A stretch of 64,000 nt of DNA. Origin: Klebsiella phage KPN8. Below, piece by piece: positions 53,461-60,276 of the stretch. The translations under genes were made by a program, and so were the position numbers. Location of the stretch: sequence record OP079919.1; one strand, given 5' to 3'. How positions within the stretch are numbered: the stretch's first letter is position 1; every line of letters begins with the position of its first letter. The notes beneath the pieces were generated by a model. That model worked only from the letters and a program-made list of their open reading frames with translations, did not search any database and had not been told where the DNA came from.

Positions 53461-53993
53461 TGACCGCTCGTTATTTTGCCGGTGATTTCCATTTAGGAGA
53501 CCCCTCTATTATCAAATACCGTAAGCAGTTTAAAACGGTAAAGGAGCACGATGAATTTATCGCTGATACGATTTTGGTTAAACCTCGTGATCACGACATA
53601 CTAACGATCGTGGGTGACGGATTCATTAAACCAGAATCGTTGTTCATTCTGAAGAAGTTCCCGTATAAGAAACATCTTATCCCAGGGAATCACTGTATGG
53701 AGAAAGGCGTTAAAGTTACTGATCTCGCTGCTTTCTTCGACGTTGTTACCGGATCGTTTAAATGGAAGAGTGGGTTCTTCGTATCCCATGAACCTCAACA
53801 TCCTGATCATCTCCGAGGTCGCATCAATATTCATGCTCATTTGCATGATAAAGTGATTGAAGACGAACGTTATATCGGGGTGTCGTTAGAACAAACCGGT
53901 TATCGTTTAATCCATCACGATGAGATCTTATCTGGTTCTTATCGTACTTATCGAGCGCCAAGATTAGAAGATCATCTTCACGTAGGAAAATAA
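53460..53993 (+). CDS. calcineurin-like metallophosphoesterase (small, YfcE-like size)
   Basis: Motifs GDFHLGD, VGDGF, GNHC and IHAHLHD, in the order of metallophosphoesterase motifs I, II, III and VI. Confidence 0.55.
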   Translation: MTARYFAGDFHLGDPSIIKYRKQFKTVKEHDEFIADTILVKPRDHDILTIVGDGFIKPESLFILKKFPYKKHLIPGNHCMEKGVKVTDLAAFFDVVTGSFKWKSGFFVSHEPQHPDHLRGRINIHAHLHDKVIEDERYIGVSLEQTGYRLIHHDEILSGSYRTYRAPRLEDHLHVGK

Positions 53994-53995
53994 TT

Positions 53996-54256
53996 ATGGA
54001 TCTAGATAACGATATTGTTAGTAAAGAGCATCCCAAACCGATGAGTATAAGCACAGTGTATGGTGATGAGAAAGAAATAGCCTCTCGTGTGTGCGTCATC
54101 GACGCCTGCGTTAATTTCAGCAGGGCTATTGAAGAAGCATGGTTGAAATTACAAAAACCAGAAAAGGTAACAAAAGTCGATTTGAGCTTCGTTATGGAAG
54201 ATGGAAATACATGTGACATAACCGTGGTTAAAAAGATAGAAGATGAAGTATTGTAA
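53996..54256 (+). CDS. hypothetical small protein
   Basis: TAATTATGG overlap-type coupling. Confidence 0.45.
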   Translation: MDLDNDIVSKEHPKPMSISTVYGDEKEIASRVCVIDACVNFSRAIEEAWLKLQKPEKVTKVDLSFVMEDGNTCDITVVKKIEDEVL

Positions 54257-54332
54257 ATCTTTACGAAGCTAAGCGAGATAAAGAACTTAAGGCAACGTTG
54301 AAGAAAATTGTTCCCATTAGTAAGGTGTAAAG

Positions 54333-54677
54333 ATGAATCCATTTAACATTTATTTTTCTGCTTCTCCCCTGGGGTCCGCTATAGGGTTAGCGATCTTGCT
54401 AGTCCTTGGGTGGTTTTTTATTTACCGCAGCCCTACGGTGATTAACCAAGTTATCGGTAAACAGAAACGCGTCTACGTTGTTTTGTTCGTCCTGGTATTT
54501 TTTATCGGGAGTTGTTTTAATATAGGTACTCGGCAAGCTGAGCTTAATCGTTCTCAGTTCGACACCCAGATGAACACTGAGATCATCAAGAAATCACCTA
54601 CCTCCACGGAAGTCTTCGATGCCCGTGGTAACTTTAATCAAGCGTTAGATAAAGCAAAAAAGGAAAATGAACAATGA
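54333..54677 (+). CDS. membrane protein, probable partner of the SPFH protein
   Basis: Two TM segments. ATGA overlap with the downstream SPFH gene. Confidence 0.5.
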   Translation: MNPFNIYFSASPLGSAIGLAILLVLGWFFIYRSPTVINQVIGKQKRVYVVLFVLVFFIGSCFNIGTRQAELNRSQFDTQMNTEIIKKSPTSTEVFDARGNFNQALDKAKKENEQ

Positions 54678-55540
54678 AGAAACTTTTCTCAATTGTGGGA
54701 TTAGTGATGATTGCAACTTTACTCTCTGGATGCGGTCAGATTGTAGAACCTGGTTTTAAAGCCAAGTTCCTTTCTTCCAGCGGTTACAGTAACGAGATCA
54801 AGGAGCCGGGTAAATATCAAGTTTGGTGGGGCGAGAAGTTGATTAAACTTGATACCTCGACCAAAGCGATATCCATTCCTCTCACTGTTAAGATGGCGGA
54901 TGAAATGGATTTATCCTTTAGCGTTAACTTCCGTACCCGAGTCGGGGGTAACGATAAAGTCCTGAACGCCATGTTTAACGACATTCGACCTCAGGATACC
55001 GATAAGGGTCTGATCATCTCCTTAGATCAGGTATTCTCGGTTTACGGTAATGACGTAGTGAGTAACGTTGCTCGTTCCGTAGTGGGGAAATACAAAGTCA
55101 GTGAGGTCTCTAAAAACTACGACACGATCAACGAGCAACTTCAGGCTAAGTTAATCGAAGCGATGAAGAACAACCCGCTGGAAGTGTCCAACGTGACCGT
55201 CGCTAACATTACCTGGCCTAAAGTCATTACTGACGCCATCGAAAAGCAACAAGAACGTGAACTGGCAATCAAGACAGAAGAAAACCAGCAAGCGATAGAA
55301 ATGGTTAAACGCACTAACCAGCTCAAACTCGCCGAAGCTGACCGAGAGATCGAACTCACTCGAGCGAGAACCCTGCGAGATCAGAATGCCATTACCGCCG
55401 ATGGCTTAAGCGATAAACTCATCGCTTATAAAGCGTTAGAGGTTCAACAATCCATGACAGATAACAAGTCGGCGGTGTTTGTCCCTTATGAAGCGTTCAA
55501 TGCACCCGGATTGTCCAACCGCATCTTTAGTGCCAAATAA
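54674..55540 (+). CDS. SPFH/band-7 (prohibitin/HflK-like) lipoprotein
   Basis: Lipobox LLSGC after a hydrophobic leader. Central SPFH-like region. Long C-terminal coiled-coil AIEKQQERELAIKTEENQQAIEMVKRTNQLKLAEADREIELTRAR. Confidence 0.55.
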   Translation: MKKLFSIVGLVMIATLLSGCGQIVEPGFKAKFLSSSGYSNEIKEPGKYQVWWGEKLIKLDTSTKAISIPLTVKMADEMDLSFSVNFRTRVGGNDKVLNAMFNDIRPQDTDKGLIISLDQVFSVYGNDVVSNVARSVVGKYKVSEVSKNYDTINEQLQAKLIEAMKNNPLEVSNVTVANITWPKVITDAIEKQQERELAIKTEENQQAIEMVKRTNQLKLAEADREIELTRARTLRDQNAITADGLSDKLIAYKALEVQQSMTDNKSAVFVPYEAFNAPGLSNRIFSAK

Positions 55541-55548
55541 TTAACAAT

Positions 55549-55577
55549 TAATCTGGTTGGGCTCATCCAACCAGATT
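55549..55577 (+). terminator. terminator AATCTGGTTGG-GCTCAT-CCAACCAGATT
   Basis: 11-bp stem after the SPFH gene. Confidence 0.6.
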
Positions 55578-55603
55578 ACCTTTACTTTAGGAAAAAAAAT
55601 ATC

Positions 55604-56167
55604 ATGATCAATTGCTTGAGTGCCAATGAGTCAGAATTGTTTAAAAAGCAATGGAACGAATACGTAGAGGAAGGGCTTCCCGGACTCGATGAAAGAATGA
55701 AGGGCCCGATGCTGATCCTGAACGCAATACCTGGGGTAACGACCCGATTTTGTTGTTCCGGTCATACCTTTGAAGAAAGGCTATCATCTCACCCGACCAA
55801 AGTTTATTCTCGAGTACAGAAAAGGAATTTCATTTTTGTTGTTGAGGTGGCGCACCCAACCATTTTTTCAGTATTTGATAAGTTCTTTAAATCTTTAGAT
55901 GAGGACGAGTTTATTTTCTGCCGACCTTCTCTAGAGACCACTCTGCTTAAGAAAAACTTTGGTGGTCGTGAAGTATATCCGGTTTGGGTATTCGAAATGA
56001 ACTGGGTTTACGAACTTACCGAGGAGGAAAAAACAAAAGGGAGAGACGAGGTTCAAAAAGAACTGTGGGAGAGACTCCTCAGAGAACTTTTCCTTATTAC
56101 CTCCCCTGAAATTCGCAACGAATATTATTCCAGGTCGGTTTTTACTCATCCCCATCAACCTAGCTAA
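55604..56167 (+). CDS. hypothetical protein
   Basis: TTTACTTTAGGAAAAAAAATATCATG motif. Confidence 0.55.
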   Translation: MINCLSANESELFKKQWNEYVEEGLPGLDERMKGPMLILNAIPGVTTRFCCSGHTFEERLSSHPTKVYSRVQKRNFIFVVEVAHPTIFSVFDKFFKSLDEDEFIFCRPSLETTLLKKNFGGREVYPVWVFEMNWVYELTEEEKTKGRDEVQKELWERLLRELFLITSPEIRNEYYSRSVFTHPHQPS

Positions 56168-56181
56168 CTAGGGACTTTATC

Positions 56182-57291
56182 ATGTTTGATATCGGCATCG
56201 TCGTTGGTAAATTCGCCCCGCTCACTCAGGGTCATATCAACCTTATCACCCAAGCCTCCCTCCAGGCTAAGAAAGTTATCGTTGTGTTAAGTCACGACAG
56301 TCGCTGGTTAGCGCAACAATGTCCTCGTGATCAGAAGGCGTTGACGTTCACCAACCGTCTTCGTTGGTTACAGCAGCATTACGCCGATTCTGACCATATT
56401 GATATTAAATATATCATCGAAGATGACATCCCGGAATTCCCCAACGGATGGAGCGCTTACTGTAACCTCCTCAGGAAGATCTACACTGAGGAACAGCACA
56501 AGAAATATAAAGGAATCGGATCAGTCGACAACACTCGTCGGATTGCTCAGACCGTAGCCATTTTCAGTAGCGAAATCGATTACGATAAAGGCTACGAGGA
56601 GCATCTTCCTGAAGTCAGTCACGTCGTCGTTGACGCGCATCGTACGGCGGTTCCAATTAGCGCGACTAAAATTCGTGAGAATCTTTACGCCAACTGGGAA
56701 TACCTCCCTTCTATTGTTCGTAAGGACTACACCAAACGGATTGTCATCCTCGGTCAGGAATCTTGCGGTAAAAGTGTCATGGTCAAGAATCTGGCTAAGA
56801 TGTTTAATACGTCCTGGGTAGAGGAGTACGGTCGGACGTATTGTGAAACAGAGCTCTGTGGTTCAGAATCGACACTCCGTAGCGATGATTATCCTATTAT
56901 CGCTTATCGCCATAAGGAGCTGGAAATCCAGGCCATGCGCTCAGCCAATCGTATCTGCATCGTGGATACGAACGCGTTCATTACTGAATACTACCATCGG
57001 TTGTATGAAGGAAAACCTAACCGGATCGTTTCCGCAATTGCTGCTGAGGAAAACTACGATTTAGTTATCGTACTCAAGCCTACAGTGCCGTGGGTCGACG
57101 ACGGCCTTCGTAGTAATCCCGAAAGACAACGCACGACTGAACTATTTAATCTCATGTGTCTGGAGTTCCCTAATCAGCTCCCGGGAGGAAGAACGTTCTA
57201 TATTTCTTCCCCTGATTACAAAGTTAGGTTCGATCAGGCTTACGAGATTATCAAAACCTTTACCCAGCGTGTTAACTCAGGTGAATTTTAA
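56182..57291 (+). CDS. nadR: NadR-like bifunctional NMN adenylyltransferase / ribosylnicotinamide kinase (no HTH domain)
   Basis: N-terminal IVVGKFAPLTQGHINLI is the (H/T)xGH nucleotidyltransferase motif, as in NadR YPLHTGH. Mid-protein IVILGQESCGKSVMVKNLA is a Walker A motif nearly identical to the NadR kinase-domain P-loop. 369 aa. Confidence 0.8.
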   Translation: MFDIGIVVGKFAPLTQGHINLITQASLQAKKVIVVLSHDSRWLAQQCPRDQKALTFTNRLRWLQQHYADSDHIDIKYIIEDDIPEFPNGWSAYCNLLRKIYTEEQHKKYKGIGSVDNTRRIAQTVAIFSSEIDYDKGYEEHLPEVSHVVVDAHRTAVPISATKIRENLYANWEYLPSIVRKDYTKRIVILGQESCGKSVMVKNLAKMFNTSWVEEYGRTYCETELCGSESTLRSDDYPIIAYRHKELEIQAMRSANRICIVDTNAFITEYYHRLYEGKPNRIVSAIAAEENYDLVIVLKPTVPWVDDGLRSNPERQRTTELFNLMCLEFPNQLPGGRTFYISSPDYKVRFDQAYEIIKTFTQRVNSGEF

Positions 57292-57987
57292 ATGAAAGAA
57301 CTTTTTAGCGTAATCTATACTGATTTCCAGAGCGGATGGAGTCGTAAGGAATGGCTGTGGTTAGTCGTAGCCGTCTCGGCTGTTGTAGTTGGGAGTATCT
57401 CCGCTTCGCCACTGGAATTCTGGGCGGGTATATTCAACGTCGTCTGCGTTATTCTTGTTGCTAAAGGTCGACTCTCCAATTACTATTGGGGACTATTAGG
57501 GGTGGTTCTCTACGCGATCGTTTCCTACAAGCAACAACTCTACGGCAACATGGCGCTTAACGTCATTTACTTTGGATTCCAATTCTGGGGTATTTACGAA
57601 TGGCGTAAAACATTGCTGAATAAGACTGATGCTGGCGTTGACGTATCCGTTAAAAGACTGTCACTTCTCCAGTTCCTTCAGATGACGTTCGTTGTTTTGG
57701 CGGGGACCTTTGCAGTCAGTTTGTTCCTTCGTCATATCGGGGATAGCTCACCTGTATTAGATGCGTTTACGATGGTAGCGAGCTTAATCGCTATGGGCTT
57801 GATGGTTAAACAGTATTCCGAACAATGGTTACTCTGGATACTGGTCGATATCGCTTCTATTTACATGTGGGTCATTCCTGCTTTAGACCAACCTGGTTCT
57901 TGGTCCATGGTAGCGATGTGGACGGTCATCACCGGTAACGCGCTGTACGGCGCTTACATGTGGTTTATTGTTAAGATAAATAAATAA
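57292..57987 (+). CDS. pnuC: PnuC-like nicotinamide riboside transporter
   Basis: ATG directly abuts the nadR-like TAA (TAAATG). About 230 aa with 7-8 hydrophobic helices. PnuC-like size, topology and W/Y-rich helices (FGFQFWGIYEW). Adjacent to nadR, as in bacterial pnuC-nadR salvage. Confidence 0.65.
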   Translation: MKELFSVIYTDFQSGWSRKEWLWLVVAVSAVVVGSISASPLEFWAGIFNVVCVILVAKGRLSNYYWGLLGVVLYAIVSYKQQLYGNMALNVIYFGFQFWGIYEWRKTLLNKTDAGVDVSVKRLSLLQFLQMTFVVLAGTFAVSLFLRHIGDSSPVLDAFTMVASLIAMGLMVKQYSEQWLLWILVDIASIYMWVIPALDQPGSWSMVAMWTVITGNALYGAYMWFIVKINK

Positions 57988-58012
57988 TTCCGATAATAGA
58001 GGATAAAATATC

Positions 58013-58714
58013 ATGCGTGAGAACTATGACATTAATGCCACTTCAGACGACGTCTTCTTTAATCACTCTAAATCATTTAAGCTGGTGAGCAAAGCGATTA
58101 AGAAGATCAGTTCAGCAAAATGGGAGGGGGTTTTTAGTGACCCTACCCAGAATGCTGCCCGTGGGTATGATGAAGGCCGGTTCGATAACATCCTCCGCGC
58201 AATGTATTCTGAAGATTTGGCGAGGGCCTTGGACTTTGCTATTCATCGCAACGAGATTGCCCGAATAGATATCGCCATCATGATGATGAAACCTGAAACC
58301 AAAATCGATTACCATTTTAGGCACGATATCCCCTATCGTCAATGGGGATATCTTAGTTTCCGATCTGATTTAACAATTGCCAGCGCGGATCAGCTCGACA
58401 GCAATCCCTTTTTCTTCACTACGCTCTTGCGGGAGCTCAAAAGAGCGGGGATTTACGATTACAACGTAAACGCGATCAGCGAGCTTTATCAACTTGTACA
58501 TCTGGCCTCTATCGCGCTGTCGTACACTGGTTTGAGTGGATTGGGGGAATCGGATTCCTACCAGAACGCAATCGGTGTCGCCATGCAGGTAATTCGTCGT
58601 TGGGGCGCGGGAGAGAGTTCTGAAGTTATGAGTGATCTTGATCGAGCCACTCAGATTTGGTCGCCTTCGGAATCGGACTATGTTAAGTTTTACGAAGAAT
58701 TGGTCATCGGATAA
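58013..58714 (+). CDS. hypothetical protein
   Basis: SD AGAGGATAAAATATCATG. Confidence 0.55.
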   Translation: MRENYDINATSDDVFFNHSKSFKLVSKAIKKISSAKWEGVFSDPTQNAARGYDEGRFDNILRAMYSEDLARALDFAIHRNEIARIDIAIMMMKPETKIDYHFRHDIPYRQWGYLSFRSDLTIASADQLDSNPFFFTTLLRELKRAGIYDYNVNAISELYQLVHLASIALSYTGLSGLGESDSYQNAIGVAMQVIRRWGAGESSEVMSDLDRATQIWSPSESDYVKFYEELVIG

Positions 58715-58813
58715 CGAAGCGTAATTAAATTTAATAGTATGGTCAGTCGACCTAGGTGAGAGTGATCTTGTAGGTTACTCTCATTCCTTTCGTAAATATC
58801 GGAGAAATAAAAA

Positions 58814-59329
58814 ATGGCTAAAGAAAACGTTGTTCGTATTCCACTGTATAATTTAGGTAATCTTTCTTGTGTAGGGTATCGAGAAGGGTGTGGGTATAAC
58901 GTTAAGGTTTATTGGGGTGATTATCTGCTGGCCTCTAAACCTAATCTCACCCAAGCACTCGACTTCGCTTATATCGGAGTTCGACTCTTCTCCCCGATTC
59001 ATAGTGAATGGTTAACCAACGATCTGCGCTTAACTATTTGTGAATCTTTGATAAAAGCCCGTTTATTAATTGATGGCAATCATAGCGTAGAGCGTTCTTC
59101 TGTTCTTTCAGAGGGATTCCTTAAACATTGGAAAACAGGTGAGTCTGGAGTAGACTATTATCTGGAAGTACGTCTTGCTAGAGACCCGGGTAAAATAGAA
59201 GACGACATCGTTCAAGTCACCTTAAAGTATGACAACGACGGGTGCAGCTTCACTCATAGCTTCAAGAAATACGCTTCCGTTTTCAACTATAAAGAACATT
59301 TAGGCCTTTTCAAACAAGTTACCCGCTGA
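58814..59329 (+). CDS. hypothetical protein
   Basis: SD TCGGAGAAATAAAAAATG. Confidence 0.5.
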   Translation: MAKENVVRIPLYNLGNLSCVGYREGCGYNVKVYWGDYLLASKPNLTQALDFAYIGVRLFSPIHSEWLTNDLRLTICESLIKARLLIDGNHSVERSSVLSEGFLKHWKTGESGVDYYLEVRLARDPGKIEDDIVQVTLKYDNDGCSFTHSFKKYASVFNYKEHLGLFKQVTR

Positions 59330-59336
59330 GTCATTC

Positions 59337-59370
59337 TAACTCCTACTCCCGATAAGGGAGTAGGAGTTAT
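59337..59370 (+). terminator. terminator hairpin TAACTCCTACTCCC-GATAAG-GGAGTAGGAGTTA (loop is the reverse complement of the TTATCG loop in the 25159 and 38758 copies)
   Basis: 14-bp stem identical to the 38758 stem. Loop inverted. Confidence 0.7.
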
Positions 59371-59444
59371 TACACATGTAAATAAAAACAGACCTTTATT
59401 ATCTCTATGTGGAATAAACCATAATCTTTTTAGGAGCATGTAAC

Positions 59445-59747
59445 GTGAACATCTATTTAGTTAAACCAATGGAATTTACTGGCGACGAAGATATCAACGG
59501 TATGGTCGTTGTAGCACCTGACACCAACACCGCCTTGCTGACCCACCCTCATATCGACGCAGACGGCAATACCTTCGAATGGGAAGTCGAAACCAATTCT
59601 GAAGCTGGTAACTGGGTGGATGATGAGGGCCGAACTGACATCTTCCACGGCTGCGCTTGGCCGGCTCCTGATCGTTTACACTGTGTTCTGTTGGGCGTAG
59701 CCGCCGACGGGATGGAAGAAGGTATCGTGTTGGTCGATCGTGATTAA
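59445..59747 (+). CDS. hypothetical acidic protein (GTG start)
   Basis: TCTTTTTAGGAGCATGTAACGTG motif. Confidence 0.5.
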   Translation: MNIYLVKPMEFTGDEDINGMVVVAPDTNTALLTHPHIDADGNTFEWEVETNSEAGNWVDDEGRTDIFHGCAWPAPDRLHCVLLGVAADGMEEGIVLVDRD

Positions 59748-59757
59748 GGGGTAACGC

Positions 59758-60276
59758 ATGAAAGTCGTTAGATTTGGGAACCTGACCGTTAATAAAGATA
59801 ACAAGCTGGAGATAACACAGTTTAATTTTTCCAGTGAGTCCAACGGCGAACCCGTCACACCGGCTGGTATGGTGAAAGCTATTGTCAAATGGCTAAACAG
59901 TCATGTCGGGAACACCGATGGGATGTTCAATCCCATCAAAGACTTAAACGGAGTCCCGCTTATCGCAGGAGTAAATATCCCAATTGATCAATCCAAGTTG
60001 GTTATGCCTAAAAGTGTGGCTTTAGCCGAACTGGATCCTCCTGTTTTTAGCACCAACGAATATACGTTCCTGGAAGTAGAGGAACGCGTTTATCAGCTCA
60101 TAGCGATGCAAATAGGTATAACGCTCACTACCGAAATGGGTGTCATTCCTGGCTCGGTTGAACTGATTGATGTGGATGACTCTCGTCCACATCCCGACAA
60201 TGTCGTAGGTTACTGCCTGACATTAGAAAATCCACCGCGGTATTTCTTGAAAGTTAAGAATAAAGGAGTTCGGTAA
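59758..60276 (+). CDS. hypothetical protein
   Basis: SD AAGGGGTAACGCATG. Confidence 0.5.
   Translation: MKVVRFGNLTVNKDNKLEITQFNFSSESNGEPVTPAGMVKAIVKWLNSHVGNTDGMFNPIKDLNGVPLIAGVNIPIDQSKLVMPKSVALAELDPPVFSTNEYTFLEVEERVYQLIAMQIGITLTTEMGVIPGSVELIDVDDSRPHPDNVVGYCLTLENPPRYFLKVKNKGVR

Follow-up and report, generated by a model that had tools for sequence, protein, structure and literature searches.

Positions 56,182 to 57,987 of a 64,000-nucleotide stretch of Klebsiella phage KPN8 DNA (record OP079919.1; the whole stretch is called the window) carry two abutting genes on the plus strand, one for a NadR-like enzyme and one for a PnuC-family transporter. We read the pair as a module of the NARP3 type for rebuilding nicotinamide adenine dinucleotide (NAD+), carried by a Miamivirus-like jumbo Klebsiella phage. 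It would counter abortive infection by NAD+-cleaving enzymes (NADases) when nicotinamide riboside (NR) is available, a reading to which we give a probability of about 0.82. Comparison with known systems supports the module as a jumbo-phage member of NAD+ reconstitution pathway 3 (NARP3), which has already been published.

NARP3 was named and demonstrated by Yan et al. (Sci Adv, 12 Aug 2026; PMC13464706) with Bas30_86 and Bas30_87 of the T5-like Escherichia phage TrudiRoth, through biochemistry, structures and assays of plaquing and NAD+. Bas30_86, a NadR-like enzyme without a helix-turn-helix (HTH) domain, converts NR to nicotinamide mononucleotide (NMN) and then to NAD+ in two catalytic sites, and Bas30_87 binds NR, the dissociation constant being ~0.66 µM. 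Together, and neither alone, the two raised the plaquing of T7 and lambda on Sir2-HerA hosts 10^3-10^4-fold, and the effect was NR-dependent with a half-maximal effective concentration of 3.6-5.6 µM. The pair also counteracts DSR1 through NAD+ restoration, and NARP3 reverses the restriction that Klebsiella pneumoniae Sir2-HerA imposes on Klebsiella phages (PMC13464706). Earlier, Iyer et al. 2022 had listed the NadR of medium and jumbo phages among their means of NAD+ reconstitution, and Osterman et al. 2024 had put forward a NadR and PnuC operon as a candidate further NAD+ reconstitution pathway.

Window DNA is 92-95% identical to three jumbo phages of ~252 kb, Klebsiella phages YC1 and Miami and the 'Stenotrophomonas' phage BUCTxx100; Miami belongs to the genus Miamivirus. 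By this identity the window comes from a Miamivirus-type jumbo Klebsiella phage, a myophage of the ~252 kb type. The GenBank records of all three already annotate a gene for a NadR-like protein or ribosylnicotinamide kinase and, after it, one for a PnuC-like transporter. The initial annotation, made from the letters and their reading frames, had proposed an import-and-convert NAD+ route able to counter NAD+-depleting defence, and strong homology to Bas30_86 and Bas30_87 supports such a role. Its suggestion that this may be an undescribed variant does not stand, given the operon flagged in 2024, the NARP3 publication of August 2026 (PMC13464706) and the annotations in the relatives' records.

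The module has the following features:

56182..57291, plus strand: gene for the NadR-like bifunctional enzyme, 369 amino acids (Pfam, NCBIfam, PHROG and PDB alignments)
56206..56235, plus strand: GKFAPLTQGH, the (H/T)xGH nucleotidyltransferase motif, residues 9-18, including K10 and F11, which equal K10 and F11 of Bas30_86
56488..56541, plus strand: 18-residue insertion EEQHKKYKGIGSVDNTRR relative to Bas30_86, residues 103-120, in the NMN adenylyltransferase (NMNAT) domain
56656..56676, plus strand: ISATKIR, the second NMNAT signature (SxTxxR), residues 159-165
56752..56775, plus strand: GQESCGKS, the Walker A motif or P-loop of the ribosylnicotinamide kinase (RNK) domain, residues 191-198
57289..57294, plus strand: TAAATG junction, nadR stop and pnuC start (read from the sequence)
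57292..57987, plus strand: gene for the PnuC-family nicotinamide riboside transporter, 231 amino acids (Pfam, NCBIfam, PHROG and hydropathy)
57847..57849, plus strand: codon of D186, at the position of the NR contact N180 of Bas30_87 and N214 of 4QTN

The gene structure, domain content and homology of the two open reading frames (ORFs) are established here. Pfam placed CTP_transf_like at residues 6-166 of the NadR-like ORF (E=7e-5, above the Pfam cut-off) and AAA_28 at residues 186-329 (E=1.5e-28). PHROG 3462, 'nicotinamide-nucleotide adenylyltransferase', matched with E=7e-126, and the NCBIfam NadR model NF005988 scored 253 bits against a cut-off of 201; TIGR01526 gave 264.5 bits, under its equivalog cut-off of 341. 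The NMNAT domain thus delimited spans roughly residues 3-170 and the RNK domain roughly residues 186-360; a WVDDGLRS motif is also present. The NF005988 alignment begins at profile position 65, at residue 3 of the protein, and therefore the N-terminal HTH is absent. Pfam and NCBIfam gave no HTH match in the ORF, the protein starts at the NMNAT domain and the ORF is not extendable upstream. These domain assignments go well past what chance would give, and on them ORF 56182-57291 is an HTH-less bifunctional NadR-like enzyme and a homologue of Bas30_86.

Alignments to PDB entries point the same way. The protein matched the Bas30_86 crystal structure 9X6F (E=6e-138, 60% global identity; 9X6F and 9X6H were confirmed as Bas30_86), and the NadR proteins of E. 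coli (8X7F, E=8e-52) and H. influenzae (1LW7, E=2e-52) aligned as well. The Walker A stretch, ILGQESCGKSVMVKNLA, is identical to E. coli NadR at 11 of 17 positions and to H. influenzae NadR at 12 of 17, with the GxxxxGK[ST] consensus intact. The sole structural difference from Bas30_86 is the 18-residue insertion, which sits in a loop that separates the NMN-binding loop from the F128/S130/D133 strand. This loop differs in length among phage NadRs and reaches its greatest length in the Miami clade.

Residues critical for NARP3 function are conserved. Bas30_86 numbering was rebuilt from the 9X6F alignment, a mapping we consider sound because it reproduced all 20 residue names of the NARP3 paper. 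All 13 mutationally critical residues are identical in the window protein (K10, F11, S37, E80, P84, G89, F110, S112, D115, V139, I141, E230 and D275, in Bas30_86 numbering). Of the 20 named Bas30_86 contacts, 17 are identical and the other three differ conservatively (Y86F, R167K, K168R).

The second ORF matched PF04973 NMN_transporter (E=4e-43), TIGR01528 PnuC (129 bits against a cut-off of 42), PHROG 1880 (E=7e-53) and N. mucosa PnuC, 4QTN (E=1e-33). Its hydropathy profile has seven clear hydrophobic segments and a weaker C-terminal one, which fits seven to eight transmembrane helices. Bas27_0093 of BASEL phage TrudiGerster, the sister of TrudiRoth, served as proxy for the near-identical Bas30_87, since it has N, Q and N at positions 45, 94 and 180, the residues published for Bas30_87; the window protein shares 44% identity with it. 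Of the three NR-binding residues, two are common to both transporters, N49 and Q97 corresponding to N45 and Q94 of Bas30_87, and the third site has D186 in place of N180. N. mucosa PnuC contacts NR through four residues, and for two of these, Q196 and Y242, the window protein has M168 and I213, a replacement also present in other phage PnuCs.

The junction of the two genes reads ...GAATTTTAAATGAAA, with the TAA directly before the ATG and no gap, and a GGTGA lies 7-11 nucleotides 5' of the pnuC start. From this abutment and the upstream GGTGA, translational coupling of nadR and pnuC is plausible. The initial annotation had placed both ORFs on these coordinates with this junction, and had described the (H/T)xGH motif, the missing HTH domain and a PnuC-like partner of seven to eight helices; all of this was borne out. 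The three families it had named, CTP_transf_like, AAA_28 and NMN_transporter, were all matched, and none of the catalytic residues checked in the NadR domains had been lost. Its account of the Walker A motif held as to the consensus, and its wording that the motif matches enterobacterial NadR 'almost residue for residue' was slightly overstated.

Purifying selection on both genes is likewise established. In comparisons with four relatives (Miami, YC1 and two metagenomic contigs), the ratio of nonsynonymous to synonymous divergence (dN/dS) was 0.03-0.06 for nadR and 0.03-0.05 for pnuC, which indicates that both are maintained by selection; dS reached 0.9 and dN was at most 0.04. The pair is kept across six Miami-type genomes or contigs. 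These values bear on the idea that the genes are left over from horizontal transfer, decaying or dispensable and now without function in this phage, for which the deletion scars of the module in related phages, described below, could speak. With both ORFs full length, the 13 critical enzyme residues intact, synonymous change far in excess of nonsynonymous change and the pair conserved in six genomes or contigs, such decay is very improbable.

By homology to NARP3, the window genes would provide NR transport, two catalytic steps and a counter-defence effect. The PnuC-like protein would sit in the host inner membrane and let external NR diffuse in. The RNK domain would phosphorylate NR to NMN, trapping it inside the cell, and the adenylyltransferase domain would convert NMN and ATP to NAD+. 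Because the enzyme lacks the HTH repressor domain and would be made from phage transcripts, the route may escape the feedback control mediated by host NadR. NAD+ would then be sustained or restored when NADase effectors (Sir2-HerA, DSR or TIR-type) try to abort the infection, and the NAD+ made would also feed NAD+-dependent enzymes of the phage itself.

Several points weigh against this reading. The products of NADases are ADP-ribose (ADPR) and nicotinamide, not NR, so the pathway would help only where external NR is present. Related phages and contigs that have deleted the module (phiKp_32, VB_ZK_P1 and the metagenomic L007/L008) are evidently viable. Since an NAD+-dependent ligase is encoded in relatives, a role in general NAD+ supply is inseparable from one in counter-defence. 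For NARP3, the published data were obtained with T7, lambda and Klebsiella phages by expressing the genes in trans from plasmids, and not by deleting them in a native carrier phage (PMC13464706). Finally, the change N180A in Bas30_87 abolishes NR binding (PMC13464706), and the window has Asp at this position.

The last of these points raises the possibility that the Asn-to-Asp change has shifted or impaired the specificity of the transporter. There would then be no NR-based NARP3 route; for example, the protein might import another pyridine or other nucleoside, or the enzyme might work alone on host-derived NMN. Among close relatives the change is indeed confined to the Miami clade, and the nearest non-Miami relatives (55-69% identical) all have Asn. 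Across the family, however, 9 of the 29 PnuC members sampled have Asp in this column, and by this occurrence it is a natural family variant. The two closer Asp-bearing homologues are each encoded directly 3' of a NadR-like gene, on independent contigs; a third, distant homologue adjoins an AAA_28 kinase and an NrtR-type NAD regulator. Asp also retains hydrogen-bond acceptor capacity and would favour cationic NR, and N49 and Q97 are intact. The frequency of Asp, its NadR-adjacent occurrences and the strong purifying selection on pnuC argue that D186 would be tolerated, and we consider a loss of the NR route by this change quite unlikely. D186 as the mark of a non-NR Pnu subfamily was rejected as the leading interpretation, since Asp-bearing homologues adjoin NadR-like genes.

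The surroundings of Asp-type transporters were also noted. The phage-like metagenomic contigs L016 and L017 carry pairs of Asp-type PnuC and NadR beside TerC, TerB and NUDIX genes. In contig L018, genes for an AAA_28-only kinase and then for an NrtR-type NUDIX regulator come after a PnuC-like gene.

Comparison of related phages established the NARP3-type module as accessory, present or absent as an indel. In Klebsiella phage phiKp_32, window positions 56110-58728, which hold nadR, pnuC and a third gene, orf233, are replaced by ~82 bp (L003, 5444-5525) between flanks that are 80-88% identical, and the junction retains ~20 nucleotides of the pnuC 3' end. Raoultella phage VB_ZK_P1 (L019, 3475-3609) lacks the same three genes, judged by a gene layout identical to that of phiKp_32. 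In the metagenomic L007/L008 (498-605), nadR and pnuC codons 1-204 are gone and an 81-nucleotide remnant of the pnuC 3' end stays, with 89% amino acid identity. The differing pnuC remnants in sister phages indicate that the module is ancestral in the clade and was lost by at least two distinct deletions. This loss pattern fits a conditionally beneficial counter-defence gene.

The same pattern bears on whether the module is mainly auxiliary and metabolic, supplying NAD+ for needs such as a ligase of the LigA type or the redox demand of replicating a 250-kb genome, with defence evasion a side benefit at most. YC1 and Miami do encode a LigA-type NAD+-dependent DNA ligase, with DNA_ligase_aden (E=1e-32) and OB and HhH domains in Pfam (L009, 8561-10465 in YC1; L012, 518-2422 in Miami, where it corresponds to 76517-78421); in YC1 it lies ~4 kb beyond the left edge of the window. 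It was found in a survey of 150 kb of the YC1 annotation for other NAD genes, an annotation that is sparse, with almost all genes 'hypothetical'. A ligase of this type suggests that the phage group has a direct NAD+ need of its own. PHROGs classes both families as 'moron, auxiliary metabolic gene and host takeover', and a 2024 jumbo-phage survey, which found pnuC in 68 of 174 NAD-jumbo phages, treats NAD+ synthesis genes as general metabolic equipment (PMC11662467). Against a mainly metabolic role, the homologous Bas30 pair neutralises Sir2-HerA and DSR1 (PMC13464706), and close relatives of the same lifestyle have lost the module, a better fit to conditional counter-defence than to core supply. 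The two roles are not mutually exclusive; that supply is the principal one seems possible, at odds clearly below even.

Set beside NARP3 of Bas30, the window module has the same architecture: a two-gene cassette in a phage of Enterobacteriaceae, with the nadR-like gene directly 5' of the pnuC-like gene on one strand, and an HTH-less enzyme of NMNAT and RNK domains. The carriers differ, Bas30 being a 110-kb T5-like siphophage and the window phage an unrelated jumbo myophage. The window version further differs in its NMNAT loop insertion and in D186, and in lying within a five-gene unit, where it is co-inherited with the orphan orf233.

Bacterial NR salvage by PnuC and trifunctional NadR in E. 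coli, Salmonella and H. influenzae (8X7F, 1LW7, 4QTN) uses the same chemistry, folds and signature motifs. Unlike bacterial NadR, the window enzyme has no N-terminal HTH repressor domain and so would not be a transcriptional regulator. The window genes form one operon, whereas nadR and pnuC of E. coli stand at separate loci.

Two further phage pathways reach NAD+ by other routes. NARP2 (NadV/Nampt and NMNAT, for example NadV/NatV of Vibrio phage KVP40; Osterman et al. 2024) has its final step in common with the window module, NMN adenylylation by a HIGH-superfamily nucleotidyltransferase, and likewise counters NAD+ depletion on behalf of the phage, the role proposed here. It starts from nicotinamide and phosphoribosyl pyrophosphate via Nampt and uses no transporter, whereas the window module would make NMN from imported NR via its kinase domain. 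Pfam found no Nampt/NadV domain in the module or its neighbours, and the Miami annotation has none over 76-148 kb, a span covering the window. NARP1 (ADPR pyrophosphate synthetase and Namat; Osterman et al. 2024) has the same outcome, NAD+ rebuilt in NADase-armed hosts. Its chemistry is wholly different, for it recycles the NADase products ADPR and nicotinamide, in contrast to the dependence of the window module on external NR.

The module lies in a run of five co-oriented genes (orf187, nadR, pnuC, orf233 and orf171) between two strong hairpins:

55549..55578, plus strand: hairpin with a 13-bp stem, TAATCTGGTTGGG-CTCA-CCAACCAGATTA, then a T-rich tail; likely the terminator closing an upstream SPFH unit
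55604..56167, plus strand: orf187, hypothetical protein, first gene of the putative unit
58013..58714, plus strand: orf233, orphan helical protein
58814..59329, plus strand: orf171, hypothetical protein, last gene before the downstream hairpin, kept in phages with and without the module
59337..59369, plus strand: hairpin with a perfect 14-bp stem, TAACTCCTACTCCC-GATAA-GGGAGTAGGAGTTA; likely the 3' boundary of the unit

The Miami annotation has terminators at sites homologous to both hairpins, and the two likely bound a transcription unit that contains the module. No Rfam element (NAD+ riboswitch or pnuC motif) matched at E<=1 in 54000-60000, and the operon leaves no space for a riboswitch. A sigma-70 promoter scan found 12 candidates against 10.9 expected from shuffles, which is no difference and is uninformative for a jumbo phage. 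PADLOC returned no matches in the module and its neighbours. orf187 was rejected as part of the module, as it is kept in sister phages without nadR-pnuC.

orf233 forms a common three-gene indel with nadR-pnuC in Miami-type phages. It had no Pfam, PHROG, PADLOC or PDB match, and an exhaustive profile search yielded nothing of use. Only eight homologues were present among 5.8 billion proteins, and two representative clusters among 1.84 billion. The gene is confined to Miami-type jumbo phages, always in the slot 3' of pnuC. Identities among homologues fall through 97, 83, 71, 65, 37 and 35%, and dN/dS is 0.17-0.26 against 0.03-0.06 for its neighbours, so it diverges much faster. The protein is mostly helical, with a conserved core NPFFFTTLLRELKRAGIYDY ... 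NAIGV..QVIRRW; AlphaFold2 gave no usable model, the predicted local distance difference test score being 35 with the one sequence as input and 45 with a nine-sequence alignment. A homologue with 35% identity persists in L007/L008 after the deletion of nadR-pnuC, which argues that orf233 is independent of the pathway. On this ground and the lack of family matches, orf233 was rejected as a third component of the module. It is probably not a functional part of the pathway, and its rapid divergence makes an arms-race gene possible.

We also weighed whether the Miami-clade version is a functionally distinct sub-variant of NARP3, with D186 altering affinity or substrate range and orf233 acting as an accessory factor, and regard this as doubtful. 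Were it true, D186 might, for example, let the transporter capture cationic NR more tightly when concentrations are low or take up a different pyridine nucleoside, and orf233 might be a regulator or a separate anti-defence protein of the module.

Upstream of the unit, window positions 54333-55540 form a second indel with genes for a 114-residue membrane protein and an SPFH/Band-7 protein. The window, Miami and L005 have both genes, YC1 has three small ORFs in their place and phiKp_32 lacks them. With two neighbouring indels, the 54-59 kb region is a hot-spot of accessory gene exchange. At 53993-54252, window DNA is not alignable to Miami; an 86-residue ORF (53996-54256, no Pfam match) stands at a site that in Miami, phiKp_32 and L005/L006 is taken by an antitoxin-like gene of the HigA/HTH_3 type. 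This has the appearance of a further local replacement.

Nearly all window genes lie on the plus strand, and cumulative GC skew is positive throughout. ARAGORN found no transfer RNA or transfer-messenger RNA genes in the 64-kb window. The GC content of the module, 45-47%, is slightly higher than the window mean of 43.4%. BUCTxx100 (OR529409.1) was deposited as a 'Stenotrophomonas maltophilia' phage, and across the locus it is ~92% identical in DNA and 97-98% in protein to the Klebsiella phages; either its host range is unusually broad or its host label is questionable. A chimallivirus core-genome study used Miami as 'a distant relative of RAY' in phage-nucleus protein alignments, and the window may therefore come from a nucleus-forming jumbo phage lineage. 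Metabolic counter-defence would be especially useful in such a phage, because the phage nucleus protects DNA, not the NAD+ pool.

Beyond the clade, Klebsiella jumbo phages of ~300 kb, among them FBKp24 and Centimanus, are the nearest relatives (64-66%); T5-like phages come next (57-58%). The window pair has the gene order and abutment of Bas30 and Bas27, and the order of nadR then pnuC recurs in GAP32, FBKp24 and Enterococcus phage UTI-EfS3. In the ~300-kb Klebsiella jumbo phages (FBKp24: L013, 2501-4567) the NadR-like protein has an extra C-terminal tail of ~45 residues, and a 50-residue ORF lies between nadR and pnuC. In a tblastn search of 50,697 phage records, 792 had a NadR-like gene and 815 a PnuC-like one. 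Counts by genus (NadR-like/PnuC-like) almost coincide: Salmonella 174/176, Klebsiella 46/46, Escherichia 38/38, Bacillus 24/24, Lactobacillus 18/18, Prevotella 15/15 and Erwinia 14/14. NARP3-type cassettes would thus occur in ~800 of these records, far above the 124 BLAST hits of the NARP3 paper, where neither jumbo phages nor Miami are mentioned (PMC13464706).

NAD+ depletion is a widespread strategy of abortive infection, and NR salvage is a third way in which phages undo it. This bears on the choice or engineering of therapeutic Klebsiella phages, an insight already published as NARP3. The new details from the locus are minor: the three-gene indel with orf233, the deletion scars in sister phages and the NAD+-dependent ligase in relatives. 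What the locus adds is that NARP3-type cassettes appear in unrelated jumbo Klebsiella phages, where they behave as accessory genes that are gained and lost and are under strong purifying selection when present, and that an Asp variant of the NR site exists.

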